Source of the DNA: a virus
Lineage: Duplodnaviria > Heunggongvirae > Uroviricota > Caudoviricetes
Virus record (IMG/VR): IMGVR_UViG_3300020429_000539
Location: 44,263 to 108,262 of that record
Strand: one strand, 5' to 3'
Length of the DNA stretch: 64,000 nucleotides
Shown here one piece after another: positions 5,909 through 29,900 of this stretch; the stretch's first letter is position 1, and each line of letters opens with the position of its first letter. A model generated the notes under the pieces. It ran no database searches. It had not been told where the DNA came from and worked only from the letters and a program-made list of their open reading frames with translations. A program made the translations under genes and the position numbers.

Positions 5909-6258
5909 TGGAGCGCGAGGGGATCGAACCCTCGTGTCGGTCTGGTTCAGAAGAGACATCTACGAGCGTAGCTGCTGATTTAGCTTTTCATCAATCCTGC
6001 CAGCAGCGGCATGATTTTCAGAGCATCCCATTTGATCTCGATAGTTCGTCCTAGGGAATCGAACGCGCTATCTATCCGAAGTTCATCCACTCCCCAATCA
6101 TCGGAGTCATCGGGTCGTGGGCAGGCTGATTAGGCAGCCATGCGGAGGGTGTTGCTGTTGGCAACTAATTTTCGCATACCTTTTTACGAGGCCAGAGCAT
6201 GCTTCCTCGACTCGCAGTCTTCCACCTACACCATCCGGTCGAAAACCAAATGCGCCCC
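5909..6258 (-). ncRNA. ssrA: tmRNA (tag peptide ANSNTLRMAA)
   Basis: 5' GGGGCGCATTTGGTTTTCGAC, 3' T arm GAGGGTTCGATCCCCTCGCGCTCCA, about 350 nt; tag ORF GCC AAC AGC AAC ACC CTC CGC ATG GCT GCC TAA after AATTAGTT. Confidence 0.9.
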
Positions 6259-21222: not shown

Positions 21223-21970
21223 TTATTCACTCAGACAATCGAGGTTGCCTTTCATCACTTCTTTGATGTTGCGAGTCTTTCGACCTGTTCTGTGGTCTGT
21301 TACTCGGTTCTGCAAGAAGTTGTACGTCCTTGCTTTCCCTGACCTTGAACCTCCACCAATTTGTTCCTGACGCCTTTCGTTATGCTGAGAATGCCTTTTT
21401 TCTTCTTCAAGGCTCGCAACACGCGAAGCGAGGATTTCCATGGCTTTTTGTTTGTTCTGATGCTGCGACCGGCCATTGATGAACACTTGAAGACCTGTTG
21501 GCTTGTGGGTCATCCGAACAGCCGAATCCGTTTTGTTCTGATGCTGACCACCTGGCCCACTTCCTCCTTGGGTCTTGATTTCGAGGTCGCTTTCCCTCAG
21601 GTACGGTGCCTGTGCCTTGAGGATAGGCATGACCGCAACACTGACCGTTGAGGTATGCTTTCTACCTCCCCCATTCTTGGGGCATCGTTGAACAACGTGC
21701 TTGCCGCCTTCGTTTTGGAACGCTTGCCAGACGCCGCGACCCTTGACTTCGAAGGCAAACCAGCCGTAGTCCGTTGACAGGAGTTCTGTTTTGAATCCAC
21801 GATTGGCTGCATAGGTCAGGTACATAGACCCAAGAGTTTCAACGAAGTCTTTCGAGTCATCGCCACCTTCGCCAAAGCGAATTTCAACGATAATCGCTGA
21901 GGGGTCAAAGACGCTCCTGACCTCGTTGCTTGACCTGCTGTTTGTTCATACGCTTGCTTTTCTTACCCAT
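21223..21970 (-). CDS. class I peptide chain release factor lacking domain 1, translated via a +1 frameshift (about 248 aa)
   Basis: GPGGQHQNKTDSAVR (GGQ motif), RTYNF, RVTDHR. A 21-codon first frame ends AGGAG-CGT-CTT-TGA-C; the +1 frame continues DPSAIIVEIRFGEGG. Confidence 0.85.
21904..21918 (-). promoter_or_regulatory. RF2-type programmed +1 frameshift site
   Basis: Internal SD AGGAG, 3-nt spacer, CTT TGA C, the same geometry as bacterial prfB. Confidence 0.85.
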
Positions 21971-24684: not shown

Positions 24685-25839
24685 TCACGGGAAGAGAATT
24701 GCGTCCCTCACGTTGTCGATTTCCAACAGGTACATCACGAGTCGGTCGATACCGATGCCCATGCCGCTTGTTGGGGGCATTCCATACTCAAGAGCTTCGA
24801 TCAACCCATCATCAGCGCCTTCTGGTTTGCCTTCAAATCGTTCGCGCTGTTCGTCTGCTGTGTGAACCTCTTGGAAAGCGTTGGCAATCTCAAAGCCCCT
24901 GCCAAAGACCTCAAACCTATCAGCCTTGCCGTCTGGTCGGGCCTTGCAGAGCGGAGTCTGCTCAAGCGGTTGCCCAACGACGAAGCAGAGTTCCTGCATA
25001 TGCTCGTCGAAGTCTTCGCCATACTTCGCAACGAGGTCATCATACTCGTAGGTTGGCATGTCAGGACACTTGCCGGTCAAATGATGAATCAGGTCGATGA
25101 ACAGGTCTCGCATGTCTTCGATTGCGCCGTTTGACTTGTACATCTCGACCATCGTAAACTCAGGTCGGTGTGTGCGGTCAACGCCTTCGTTGCGGAAGAC
25201 ACGCCCAATCTCAAAGACGCTTGGGAAGCCTGCGATGATGGCCTTTTTGAGAGGGACTTCGAGAGCAATACGGAGATATTTGTCTCGGTTCTCTGCGTTA
25301 TGATGCGTCACGAATGGCTGTGCATTCGCTCCTGTGGGTCGGTCGCTCAGAAGCGGAGTCTCGACCTCCATGAACGCATGGACATCCTCAAGACGCCGGC
25401 GAATCTCACGGATGATTCGGCTACGCATCATGAGGTTGTGCGACTGGTCAGGATTGGCAATCAGATGAGCATATCGCTTGTGATGGATATACTCAGGATT
25501 CTCGATGCCGTGATACTTGTCGGGCCGACCGCCGTTGCATTCAGCGAGCAGCGTGTATTCTTCTGCCCAAACGGTATGTTCGCCCTTCTTGGTCTTGCCC
25601 GTTGTACCGTGAACAGAGATGATGCTCCACATCGGCGGCGGGTCCATTTTGCCACGCAAGCCAACCTGAATCGAATCGGCTGCGTCACGGATGACGACAA
25701 ACGTCAGTTTTCCGAATGTCCGCACAAAAACAACACGACCGACAACTTGAACAAATTCATCATCTCCGAGATGGTTTGCCCAAGTAATTCTAGTGTTGCC
25801 CTTGGTGTCGAGCATTTCTCCCCAGTCTATTCTATTCAT
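24685..25839 (-). CDS. lysS: compact class II lysyl-tRNA synthetase
   Basis: OB-fold (RTFGKLTFVVIRD), motif 1 FMEVETP, motif 2 FRNEG...HRPEFTMVEMY, motif 3 PPTSGMGIGIDRL. Confidence 0.9.
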   Translation of the reverse strand: MNRIDWGEMLDTKGNTRITWANHLGDDEFVQVVGRVVFVRTFGKLTFVVIRDAADSIQVGLRGKMDPPPMWSIISVHGTTGKTKKGEHTVWAEEYTLLAECNGGRPDKYHGIENPEYIHHKRYAHLIANPDQSHNLMMRSRIIREIRRRLEDVHAFMEVETPLLSDRPTGANAQPFVTHHNAENRDKYLRIALEVPLKKAIIAGFPSVFEIGRVFRNEGVDRTHRPEFTMVEMYKSNGAIEDMRDLFIDLIHHLTGKCPDMPTYEYDDLVAKYGEDFDEHMQELCFVVGQPLEQTPLCKARPDGKADRFEVFGRGFEIANAFQEVHTADEQRERFEGKPEGADDGLIEALEYGMPPTSGMGIGIDRLVMYLLEIDNVRDAILFP

Positions 25840-26261
25840 TACAGTGTCGCCGGGTGACTAAAAGGGATGGGGTTGCCGTCAGGATCAACAGAGACCATCG
25901 TGACATGCGCCGTTGTAACTTCCTCGGTCACGTTTGTATCATAGCGCATGACTTCAACACAGACCTCAATAGAGACGCTTTTTGTTCCTGTTTTTTCTGT
26001 TCGGGTATAAAGGCTTACGGTGTCGCCCACCCGAATAGGTCGTTTGAAATCGACTCTATCGAAACAGGCAGTTACCCATTTATGCATTCCATGCCTGCGA
26101 GCCTCGACGAATGCGGCTTCGTCGATCATGCTTAGTACGATACCTCCAAAGACTGTGCCGTACATATTGGTATGCAGAGGCCTCATGACCTGGCGAATAG
26201 CGCAAGACCAGTCTTGACCTTTTTCGATTGCTCGACTAAGACGCGGAGAAGGTGTCATCAT
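25839..26261 (-). CDS. acyl-CoA thioesterase (hotdog fold, YciA-like)
   Basis: PLHTNMYGTVFGGIVLSMIDEAA, VDFKRPI. Confidence 0.85.
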   Translation of the reverse strand: MMTPSPRLSRAIEKGQDWSCAIRQVMRPLHTNMYGTVFGGIVLSMIDEAAFVEARRHGMHKWVTACFDRVDFKRPIRVGDTVSLYTRTEKTGTKSVSIEVCVEVMRYDTNVTEEVTTAHVTMVSVDPDGNPIPFSHPATL

Positions 26262-26294
26262 GTAAGCATGATATCATAATGAGCTTTCACTTGA

Positions 26295-26925
26295 TTATCG
26301 AATAGCGAGCATCAGTCTGTCAATACCAACCGCGAAGCCGATTCCTTCATTATAGCTGCCGCCGCCAAGGACTTGCTTCTGGGCTCCCAGAGAGTTGACG
26401 CTTGCTTCAAAACCGTCATCGACGTAATACGCCAGGCCACGTTTGACCTGACTCGACCATTCGTAGTCTGCGCCGATTCGTTCAAGCATCGCCTTTCCAA
26501 GCGATTCAAGCTCGGCACGAGCAGCTTCAGGATCCCGAGGATTGAGCCATTCAATACCGAACTGAGTGAACTCGCGGTAACGACCCGCCTGTGGCTGTTC
26601 GTATCGCCAGCATCGCGTTTCGTACCAGAGTTTTACGTCTTTACGGGTTCCGAGCTTCTTGGCGAGAAGCTGAACCGTTGCTGTGCCTTCAGGACGGAGG
26701 CAGAGTTCTCGCCCTCCACGGTCCTCGAACACGTACATCTGTCCGAGAATCTCTTTTCCTGCCTTGTCTTCGTAGATTTTAGCAGGCTCGATGAGGGGAA
26801 GCATGATTTCATCGAAACCTTGCTTCTCAGCCGTTTCAGCGAGAGAGTTGATGAAGACGCCTCCGCAGCTTGGCTTCATCGCCAACGAGGAGTCGCGTTC
26901 CCTTTGCTTGCTGTTCCAATCGCAT
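26295..26925 (-). CDS. hisS: minimal histidyl-tRNA synthetase (catalytic core only), requiring a +1 frameshift after codon 24 (about 209 aa)
   Basis: Frame 0 MRLEQQAKGTRLLVGDEAKLRRRL; +1 frame INSLAETAEKQGFDEIMLP, LCLRPEGTA, RYEQPQAGRYREFTQFG, KRGLAYY, GGGSY, GFAVGIDRL. Confidence 0.85.
26850..26864 (-). promoter_or_regulatory. putative His-codon-gated +1 frameshift site
   Basis: GGAGG-CGT-CTT-CAT-C, the same geometry as the release-factor site, with CAT (His) in place of TGA. Confidence 0.7.
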
Positions 26926-26937
26926 GACTTTCTCCTT

Positions 26938-29900
26938 TTAGAATAGTCTAAACTGAACTTTTACAATTTTACTCTTGAAATTTGGGTTGTTAGGGTCAAA
27001 GTACCTGGCTTTGATAACAGTGTTATCAACACCAGTCAAGTTTTGAAATACCCTAAACGGTCCTGTATACAGCTTACTCTTACTCGTTGGATTTCTGTTG
27101 TTTGTCGTATAACGAATTTCTTGCCCTCTAGGTATGGCTCCAAAGTCAATCGTAACAGGCCCTCTAATTTGAGGGTTGCCTATACTCTTCTCCAGAAGAG
27201 GGTCAACTCCTGCTCGTGCAGAAGAAATGCCTCTGATGTTGACTGTAGGAGTAGAATTATTACTGGAGATTAAAGACAAGGGTCTACGTGGTCTACTGTT
27301 ACCTGCGTCAGGCTCCGGCTCAGGGTCAGGCGTAACTATAATAGTAGGAGCCCCATCGACTGCTCCTATAGCGGAAGTTGCATCGTATACTATCGCGTTT
27401 CCGTATATATCAACAGGTCGGCGGAATCCTGCTCCGTGGAAATAGAGTCTATTGTCAACAACAGATACGGGCTCATAATTGCTTCCAAGGGTGATTTCGC
27501 CTGTAGAGGTCCAGTCGCCTCTTTCGGTTCCTGATATGAAGTGATTATTGTTGATTGCAACTTCATTACCATCATCGTTCATTTGTAAAAAGATAGAATC
27601 GAGAATGGCGCAGTTAATTTCTGTTTCATCACCAAATGCAAAATTGCAACCAATGTGCGTAACAGCGTCCCAAACAACATGCTCTTTCTTGGTGTTCCAT
27701 TGCGTTTGCGCCGAACCAACTCCGTCATGATCTATGATAACATTTACGATAGCTGTATTGCGAGTTGTATCGTTTGCTGCATTATTATCAAACCAAGGTT
27801 GAGGATTAGCTTCAGTGCTAGAGAAGTAGTAAGAATCATAGTTTCCGCTTAAGATGCCTTCGTGATAATGATCAACAATTTTTAGGTAGCCATCTGCGGT
27901 GCTGCTAGGTATATCTTCAGAAACAGTAATAGTTGTATTCGTGGAAAATGATATATTTGATACAGTGTAGAAGCCATCATTTCCTGTGCTACCTTTGATC
28001 TCGATTTGGCGACCAACGACAATATCGTCAGTTAAGTCTGTATCATTTACGGTAAAAGTGTCAGCAGCGGTAGAAACCGCATCAACTGAATATCGACTAT
28101 CAGTAATAAATTGTCCTGAATCTGCATGCGCAACAATATAAGTCCATACCACATCAGATGATGCAAGCAACTCTGCTGTGTCATCGGGGTCCTCTACATC
28201 GATAGTGAATCCATCGCTATCAACGCCGCTTGTAACAATGTCCCAAAGATTATCAGAGTCTAACGAAGCAGAAGCAGCGTTGACAACTCGCAGTTTTTCA
28301 CCAGCAAAGCCGCTCCCGTATAATGTGGGACTACCAGAGAAAGCTATTCTTGTTTTACCAGCTTCAGGAGTATCGGCTGTTACGCTGCTAATGGTTAGTG
28401 TGTTTTCTAGACTTTTTCTCTGTTTAAAGTCCTGTGTAGGGCGGAAAAGACAATATCCCATACCATAAGAACCTGGATGGTTTTGAGAGACATAGATAAT
28501 AGAGTCAAAAGAGGCCACTACCTTTTGACCATATATACAAGAAGCGCCTGTAGGGCCAAGATAGTTGTCCCAGTACCCACCTATCAGGGTGCATCTTTGG
28601 CCTTCATTGCCACGGAGCATCTGTTGTGTGACTTCTCCGTCACGATAGCCATAAGTAGGCCCTGTTGCTCCATTGCTATCAACCCAGCTACAGTTGATAA
28701 AAGTTGTTACGCTTGGTATTCTGAGACTGCCGTCTACTGTGCTATCTTGAATATCTTCTACAAATACAACAGTTGTTGATCCGCTAGATTCGCTAAGCGT
28801 GTCTATGGTCCACCAACCTGTTTTGCCTGTAGAAGACGTGAGATAAACTCTATCGCCAGGAGCAAGAACATTTGTTAGGTCGGAGGCAACTGTTACAGAA
28901 TCATTAGCTGTTGAAACTGCCGTTATAGTATAATTGATTAATGAACCGTAATAATATGCAATGTCATCGGTTCTGAATTCTATATTCTTAAAGAAGATAC
29001 GCTGTAGCTTAGGCCTAAATAAATTCTCTTTACCCGGGCCACCAACAATAATATCGCCTAAAGATTTTCCATTTGCAGGTTCTACAAGAGTAGGTCGAGA
29101 AAGAATGTTATTAGAGCCAGATTCAGAAGTCGGCCAAGTGAAACTGCCTCCTGCATCAGACAGAATAATCGCCTCATTTTCTTCAGCATCTCGCAGTGCA
29201 TCGAATAGAGTATCAGCATCAACATGCGAAACAGAAGTTCTTGTTGAGTACAAGTCTCCAACGCTGCCAGCATTAGGATTGAATGTAACAGTAAACTTGA
29301 CTACGCGATTTAGGCCATTAATAGGGACGATATTAACAAATATGTCTACATCTCCCTGTAATGGACTTGCTTCAGACAGATCAATGGTAGCCTTGTAACC
29401 CCATAAAGTATCAATTCCTTCATTGATCAAATCAGAATGAATCGGTATGTTATTGTCATCTGTTACTAAGCCAGTGGTTTGCGTATAAATGCGTTTCTTT
29501 GTGCCTTCGCAATAAAAGTCTACATATGCAATACCGCCTGGGTCTTCTGTTCCTGCTGGAACAAATACGTCTAACGTGTTACTCTCAGTATAGAGCCAGG
29601 AACCATAGGCCGCAATCCAAGGGCGTCCAAATACTCTGTATGAGAATCCGGAGCCTTCAGCAGTGGAGCTTTCCGTGGGAACTGCTTCACCTCCACCACC
29701 ACTATTGCTGTATCCTGAGCCTCTTGAGCCATCCCAATCATCATGAGGCGAGATAGTCCTTGTTTCGCTCGTATCGCGCAGTGTAAAGGTAAACGTGTGG
29801 GTATAGTCTGCGAGTTCGCTGCTTGATATTGTTAGCGTGCCTGATTGGCTATCGCCGTTGGAGCCAGACGTTGTAAGAGCAATGATGAGATCATCTTCGC

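Follow-up and report, generated by a model that had tools for sequence, protein, structure and literature searches.

Results

A histidyl-tRNA synthetase-like gene divided between two reading frames

The window, by which we mean the whole stretch of 64,000 nucleotides analysed here, comes from a complete virus record of 488,051 bp that has terminal repeats. The virus is a giant marine phage, and the sequence of its record is present in marine metagenome runs. At the genome ends (C1:1-200 and 487850-488051), a tandem 11-nt unit, TCTGTAGGTGG, constitutes the reported terminal repeat. The minus strand of the window carries a gene whose product resembles histidyl-tRNA synthetase (HisRS) and is spread over two reading frames; we refer to it as mini-HisRS. 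Its features are as follows.

26932..26937, minus strand: Shine-Dalgarno sequence (SD) AAGGAG for initiation of frame 0, read directly; similar SDs stand before the frame-0 ATG in homologs
26854..26925, minus strand: frame-0 segment, codons 1-24 (MRLEQQAKGTRLLVGDEAKLRRRL), corresponding to the N-terminal strand and the first half of helix alpha1 of mini-HisRS
26860..26864, minus strand: internal SD-like GGAGG, a putative stimulator, 3 nt 5' of the shift codon; the spacing is kept among homologs
26850..26856, minus strand: shift heptamer CTT-CAT-C; the A site is CAT or CAC in every shifted locus
26836..26838, minus strand: frame-0 stop TGA, five codons past the His codon; the product of standard decoding has 29 aa
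26295..26852, minus strand: +1-frame segment, 185 codons and TAA (26297-26295), encoding the rest of the HisRS-like catalytic core

Frame 0 starts with ATG at 26925-26923 and translates as MRLEQQAKGTRLLVGDEAKLRRRL-H-QLSR up to the TGA; codons 21-25 read CGG AGG CGT CTT CAT and are followed by C 26850. Within the heptamer, the P-site Leu codon CTT occupies 26856-26854 and the A-site His codon CAT 26853-26851. The skipped base is C 26853, and the first +1 codon shares the last two bases of the A-site codon. The frame-0 segment aligns without gaps with the N-termini of in-frame homologs and with HisRS residues ~5-30. The +1 segment carries motifs 1-3 together with the RGLxYY and GGGxY histidine motifs, and matches PF13393 (tRNA-synt_His, 2e-20) and TIGR00442 (hisS, 2e-44). 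Joining the 24 frame-0 and 185 +1-frame codons gives a product of 209 residues. An initial annotation of this DNA had described a HisRS-type start in frame 0 that runs into the cassette and stops five codons later, with the rest of HisRS in the +1 frame; translation of the minus strand bears out each of these points, and the junction that it predicted, RRRL-INSLAETAEK, is the one that the joined reading would produce.

The bases themselves are secure. Four runs, each from a different study, gave independently assembled contigs that match region 26200-27000 of the window without a substitution or an indel, and two of the four contigs are not candidate sources of this DNA. Identical bases in four studies rule out an assembly error, and a simple indel, which had been named as the finding that would overturn the initial annotation, is contradicted by these contigs and by the homologs described below. 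None of the public runs containing the stretch is on record as RNA, and all matches are DNA contigs; a megablast search of the locus against GenBank phages gave no match.

Mini-HisRS resembles the catalytic core of HisRS

Sequence comparison and structure prediction characterize the protein as a HisRS-like catalytic core and not a canonical full HisRS. It scores 152-162 bits against hisS, below the equivalog cut-off of 286.75; the comparison of 162 bits for hisS with 80 bits for hisZ is one between two scores that both lie under their cut-offs. In the in-frame homolog P0013, residue 4 aligns with residue 5 of solved HisRS structures (1.5e-24), and the alignment falls into two blocks, in which query residues 4-154 and 158-196 match chain residues 5-153 and 258-295, so that the insertion domain is skipped. 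The AlphaFold model of P0013 (pLDDT 92.7, pTM 0.90) superposes best on E. coli HisRS (1kmm/1kmn), with a TM score of 0.84-0.86. Invariant columns of the family include RPEGT, WRYE.PQ.GRYREF, RGL.YY, G.G.Y and G.A.G.DR.

Mini-HisRS shares with the canonical enzymes (E. coli 1KMM/1KMN, T. thermophilus 1ADJ/4RDX) the class II catalytic fold, motif 2 RYE.PQ.GRYREF, RGLxYY, GGGxY and the motif 3 Arg. Unlike them, it is half the size (~210 aa), ends ~10 residues past motif 3, and lacks both the insertion domain and the C-terminal anticodon-binding domain. The earlier assignment as HisRS thus holds for the class II core motifs and the fold, but it does not extend to the two missing domains or to a score above the hisS cut-off. 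Given a protein limited to the core and a hisS score below the cut-off, charging of tRNAHis is a presumed activity, supported indirectly by the tRNA-His genes that adjoin mini-HisRS in more than 20 loci. Were the protein HisZ-like, or able to form no more than His-AMP, feedback would still be sensible but would differ in its working. A HisZ identity is not indicated, since hisS outscores hisZ and the genes sit in tRNA arrays, not among his genes. In the P0013 model, the junction between the two frames falls inside helix alpha1 (residues 18-36), and an internal start in the +1 frame would therefore lose a strand and half of a helix.

Cellular relatives exist as well. Loci L018-L052 encode an in-frame mini-HisRS of ~212 aa in Undibacterium, Massilia, Hahella, Pleionea and Pseudomonas megaplasmids (~1 Mb). 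These copies lie away from tRNA genes and usually contain 1-2 His residues, and one of them is named 'ATP phosphoribosyltransferase regulatory subunit' at NCBI. The neighbors of the Undibacterium and Hahella homologs (unknowns, a two-component system, a methyltransferase and an OmpA protein) are uninformative.

The cassette is conserved as a nucleotide sequence

A protein search yielded at least 2,134 homologs of ~210 aa, and DNA was compared for ~150 loci from viral, genomic and metagenomic collections. About 95 of these loci are open in one frame (start MELKIEKQAKGVRIISGEQAKNRRKVLNQMIELAE), and ~55 require a +1 shift; a frame break of any other kind or at any other place was found in none of the ~150. 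The ~55 shifted loci represent ~42 distinct sequence contexts, with protein identity down to 46%. Recurrence of the cassette on this scale is far beyond chance, and on comparative grounds the ~55 loci with the same shift contradict pseudogene status.

The initial annotation had proposed asking whether homologous genes keep SD-CUU-CAY-C, and they do. All ~42 distinct shifted contexts place a His codon, CAT or CAC, in the A site. The P-site codon is mostly CTT, sometimes GTT and once CTC (L184), and a GGAGG- or GGGGG-like purine run usually stands 3 nt 5' of it. At the main site, for which 27 distinct contexts and four more from further look-ups are available, the 27 contexts divide into 24 with CTT and three with GTT in the P site, and into 22 with CAT and five with CAC in the A site; 22 of the 27 have CGGAGG exactly 3 nt 5'. 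Frame 0 ends 1-14 codons beyond the His codon, and each of the three stop codons is used. The frame-0 tail in between varies in length and sequence, making a functional short peptide unlikely.

Across 35 distinct sequences, only CGGAGG, even at its synonymous positions, and NTT-CAY have a per-column entropy close to zero. Variation before the site is greatest at the third positions of frame-0 codons and after it at the third positions of +1-frame codons, with the switch exactly at the heptamer. This change of periodicity indicates that both frames are under protein-level selection. Moreover, the joined products align gaplessly with the ~95 in-frame homologs. Among 77 distinct in-frame homologs, Arg-Arg is found at the same place, but the CGG-AGG pair encodes it in none, and no Arg codons are rarer in this phage than CGG and AGG. 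The retention of these rare codons, and the absence of the pair from in-frame genes, indicate that the purine run is selected as a nucleotide sequence, at the 3-nt spacing known to stimulate shifting in prfB.

The same is suggested for the His codon. CAT and CAC have replaced each other in several separate clades and in both subfamilies. Each such change is silent in the abandoned frame and non-conservative in the translated one, where CAT to CAC turns the first +1 residue from Ile into Thr (ATC or ATT to ACG or ACT); among the 77 in-frame homologs, 69 have Leu at this position and none has Thr. Therefore, selection appears to act on CAY itself and not on the protein residue. The C of CAY is also retained where the P site is GTT or CTC and no re-pairing benefit arises. 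Many public gene calls begin with M....GGVFI, which is the +1-frame reading of GGnGGnGTnTTCATn, i.e. of the cassette.

Products of shifted genes are nearly free of histidine

The 48 distinct joined products contain one His in 10,074 residues. The 36 from the main group have none in 7,618 residues, and the 12 of a second subfamily (described below) have one in 2,456. By comparison, His makes up 2.2% of the long ORFs of this phage and 0.27% of the in-frame homologs, in which bacterial copies mostly have one or two and phage-like copies mostly none. Since in-frame phage homologs are also His-poor, to a lesser degree, the depletion is a trait of the family and not of the shifted genes alone. The candidate sensor codon is thus the sole His codon that a ribosome meets on this mRNA, and the enzyme could be completed under a shortage of His-tRNAHis. 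Phage codon usage favors CAT (1353) over CAC (740), so that the codon would be slow only if His-tRNAHis were truly limiting.

Three sites of the cassette within the gene family

The cassette was found at three alignment positions: at the main site, where it joins RRxL to I(N/D), four residues further on (L119), and eight residues further on, in the second subfamily. In L119 (1383-1389 of metagenome contig Ga0163152_10038021), CTT-CAT-C lies four residues downstream and joins RRKILNCL to IDLAE. It has no upstream purine run, a sister sequence is in frame, and no relative with this placement was found in viral contigs. L119 may thus be a young or weak independent cassette.

The second subfamily comprises 12 genes in phages of 400-600 kb, with 62-70% identity to L001. 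Their cassette consists of (A/C)GG (A/G)GG NNN, CTT or GTT, and CAT or CAC, usually with TGA next, and two relatives of this subfamily are in frame. Although the purine run translates differently from member to member (RG, RR, RV, RS, RE), the run itself persists, and (A/C)GG(A/G)GG is kept at 3-nt spacing in most members. One member, L186, has AGG GGG TCT CTT CAT TGA; but for the inserted CAT, this is nearly the prfB cassette of E. coli.

A maximum-likelihood tree of 132 proteins calls for at least six changes in the shifted state, and the AU test rejected a single gain or loss (p = 0.002) for a group named after the tree had been seen. Next to shifted clades, a few in-frame genes have CTC ATC (Leu-Ile) here, which is what a one-base reversion would be expected to leave. 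The alignments and the tree together indicate that the cassette evolved repeatedly, at three positions within the gene.

Genomic context and a second split gene

In phage and metagenome contigs, mini-HisRS genes sit in tRNA arrays. A tRNA-His(GUG) gene lies within ~120 nt in more than 20 loci, often just 4-16 nt away. ARAGORN identified 64 tRNA genes and a tmRNA in the present phage, several of the tRNAs with odd structures. The tRNA-Leu set comprises GAG (one gene), UAG, CAG, CAA and UAA, all of them ordinary. No other HisRS-like gene was found in this phage. Two tRNA genes and a comparison site concern us here.

38216-38144 and 37972-37890, minus strand: two tRNA-His(GUG) genes, identified by ARAGORN and from the sequence
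21904..21918, minus strand: RF2-like cassette AGGAG-CGT-CTT-TGA-C, identified from the sequence, the comparison site in the same phage

The two tRNA-His are presumed to be the substrates of mini-HisRS and the decoders of the sensor codon. C73 is common to both. The 73-nt tRNA-His gene has T at -1, hence no encoded G-1, and the 83-nt gene, whose variable arm is long, has G there. The differing -1 bases bear on what mini-HisRS recognizes. Two tRNAs with CUA anticodons (2280-2356 of the window, minus strand, and C1:40480-40552 of the genome) and a 71-nt tRNA with a UCA anticodon (C1:176826-176896) would be suppressors of UAG and UGA, which suggests stop-codon recoding in part of the genome, in a phage whose RF2-like gene is itself gated by UGA. 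The tmRNA is at 5909-6258 of the window (minus strand) and encodes the tag peptide ANSNTLRMAA.

Immediately downstream of mini-HisRS, at 24685-26261 on the minus strand, lie genes for a 4HBT thioesterase (140 aa) and, two genes downstream, a compact LysRS (384 aa; lysS 1e-100, under the cut-off). They look like one operon of shrunken translation genes.

The truncated RF2-like gene (21223-21970, minus strand; PF00472, 6.9e-32) is also split, into ~21 and 229 codons, lacks domain 1 and is expressed through a classic +1 site. As had been pointed out in the initial annotation, its site has the same geometry as that of mini-HisRS, with the SD, the CGT spacer and CTT in both cassettes. Scanning the 488-kb genome for SD-N(2-5)-CTT/GTT/CTC followed by a long +1 ORF gave 50 hits. 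The four inspected, which have CTT-CAT or CTT-stop, are all within ordinary long genes, and the remaining hits of this loose pattern are likely due to chance. With four of the 50 hits inspected, the RF2-like gene and mini-HisRS are the only confirmed split genes of the phage, and the scan gave no sign of the same arrangement in its LysRS or TyrRS.

Discussion

We describe a family of mini-HisRS genes in which two reading frames meet at a His codon. The two-frame architecture, the conservation of the cassette and the invariance of its His codon can be read in the sequences themselves, and from them we infer that ribosomes shift frame at this site. A programmed, prfB-like +1 frameshift very probably makes mini-HisRS. 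That the shift also reports the supply of His-tRNAHis is a further step, which we regard as likely. The same His-codon design recurs in ~55 related genes and looks like a built-in sensor of charged tRNAHis; the conservation of SD-CUU-CAY, the His-poor products, the three positions of the cassette and the proximity of tRNA-His genes support this interpretation.

We propose the following sequence of events. Ribosomes would initiate at ATG 26925 and read 24 codons. At that point the P site would hold peptidyl-tRNALeu on CUU, the anti-SD would be paired with GGAGG 3 nt upstream, and CAU would stand in the A site. When His-tRNAHis is ample, CAU would be decoded in frame, and translation would end at the stop five codons on with a 29-aa peptide. 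When it is scarce, the ribosome would pause, and tRNALeu(GAG), which the phage itself encodes and for which CTT-C offers UUC, could re-pair from CUU to UUC (G-U, A-U and G-C pairs). AUC would then be read in the +1 frame, and the enzyme would be made. Enzyme output would climb as charged tRNAHis drops, and because the gene family makes His-tRNAHis, the circuit would form a negative feedback loop. At the RF2 site, as at Ty1 (PMC5009743), the frequency of +1 shifting depends on a competition with the rate of A-site decoding. Curran and Yarus are said to have exploited this in 1989, putting sense codons in place of UGA at the RF2 site and measuring rates of aminoacyl-tRNA selection.

The main rival to a sensor is a genuine programmed +1 shift of fixed efficiency, which would set low expression or a ratio of peptide to enzyme without responding to His-tRNAHis. 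The geometry of SD plus CUU alone drives shifting at prfB-type sites (PMC5009743), and CAT is commonly used by this phage. Mechanical causes could also account for part of the CAY pattern, with C kept for re-pairing on UUC, and A and Y as parts of the first +1 codon, where an A-starting codon would be favored for out-of-frame binding. This account is weakened by the GTT and CTC P sites, which re-pair poorly, although these sites also mean that the slip mechanism is not uniform. A shift of fixed efficiency leaves unexplained why His occupies all ~42 A sites, those with GTT and CTC P sites among them; why CAY is retained even at the cost of an Ile to Thr change; why the products avoid His almost totally; and why the gene belongs to a family that makes His-tRNAHis. 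A function for the short peptide is unlikely in view of the unconserved tail. We consider a fixed-efficiency shift improbable.

Accounts that dispense with a programmed shift, or with the pause at the His codon, fare much worse. Without recoding, the gene would be a pseudogene, an assembly error, or the source of an N-terminally truncated product from an internal ATG or TTG of the +1 frame. Such a start is what the public gene calls P0002-P0012 adopt, with ORFs of 194-197 aa from an internal Met, and the window does have a +1-frame ATG nine codons upstream of the site. That ATG, however, is a by-product of GAT-GAR (Asp-Glu) codons, has no SD and is missing in many clades, and a truncated product would forgo the strand and half-helix mentioned above. 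The agreement of bases across four studies, the conservation of the frame-0 N-terminus as protein (RGTR...RR.L) with frame-0 periodicity, and the lack of breaks elsewhere in the ~150 loci make this explanation highly improbable. A special phage tRNA, for example a tRNALeu that reads CUUC as a quadruplet, would shift the frame with no pause at the His codon. The idea draws on the 64 phage tRNA genes, some of them with odd structures, and on the CUA and UCA suppressors; but ARAGORN shows ordinary tRNA-Leu only, with no 8-nt anticodon loop for Leu, GTT and CTC P sites would each demand additional special tRNAs, and the invariant AY after C and the His-free products would go unexplained. We give it equally little credence.

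Two other candidates were rejected. Transcriptional slippage or RNA editing does not fit CTTCATC, which has no homopolymer run. Read-through of the frame-0 TGA by tRNA(UCA) would lead only to more TGA stops and a TAA, in a stretch without homology.

We thus return to the sensor. Taken together, the comparative data lead us to assign a probability of roughly 0.6 to the reading that the cassette serves as an aminoacyl-tRNA gauge, in which a His-free mini-HisRS would be switched on by a +1 shift at its own cognate codon under a shortage of His-tRNAHis.

The closest known system is prfB, with which mini-HisRS shares a purine run exactly 3 nt upstream, a CUU P site that would re-pair one base on, a short frame-0 leader and a functional protein in the +1 frame. 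At the level of logic, the A-site codon would likewise be read by a factor supplied by the gene's own product, here His-tRNAHis. In contrast to prfB, the A site of mini-HisRS is a sense His codon (CAT/CAC) and not a UGA stop, the molecule sensed would be an aminoacyl-tRNA and not a protein factor, the frame-0 stop comes 1-14 codons later, and GTT and CTC P sites occur too. Re-pairing would be on UUC instead of the UUU of prfB, and UUC pairs better.

The yeast Ty1, ABP140 and EST3 sites (CUU-AGG-C) likewise have CUU in the P site and skip one base at an A-site sense codon that is slow to be decoded, and the Ty1 site shifts because AGG is decoded slowly (PMC5009743). They differ in that the tRNA is permanently rare, there is no feedback to the encoded protein, the setting is eukaryotic, and no SD stimulator takes part. 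His-leader attenuation and T-box riboswitches resemble the proposed circuit, since they raise expression when the cognate charged tRNA is scarce, as read through cognate codons or uncharged tRNA; they act on transcription termination or on initiation through RNA structure, whereas here the reading frame would change within the coding sequence.

A literature search in a limited collection, which is not proof of novelty, found no paper describing this cassette or such control of a synthetase. No synthetase case of this type is mentioned in the accessible part of a 2016 recoding review, nor in the GeneTack survey. The kind of event, an SD-stimulated autoregulatory +1 frameshift, is known; what is new is the cognate sense codon as sensor, the synthetase gene, the His-free product and the repeated origin. 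To our knowledge, proven regulatory +1 programmed frameshifts are very few (RF2, antizyme and a handful of yeast genes), and every bacterial case that we know of senses a stop codon. We know of frame choice as a report on the charging of a single tRNA only as a laboratory assay.

If the proposed circuit is true, mini-HisRS would provide the first known case of a synthetase, and of any bacterial or phage gene, under autoregulation by a 'hungry' frameshift at a sense codon. It would mean that the choice of frame by the ribosome can report the charging level of a single tRNA, and would add a mode of synthetase control to T-boxes, attenuation and operator mimicry. There are practical consequences too: gene callers now annotate these genes as truncated ORFs of 150-200 aa, and the ~20-nt cassette is a portable candidate biosensor for His-tRNAHis. 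The same principle could be sought in other phage translation genes, and it would help to explain how giant phages manage their private sets of tRNAs and synthetases during infection.
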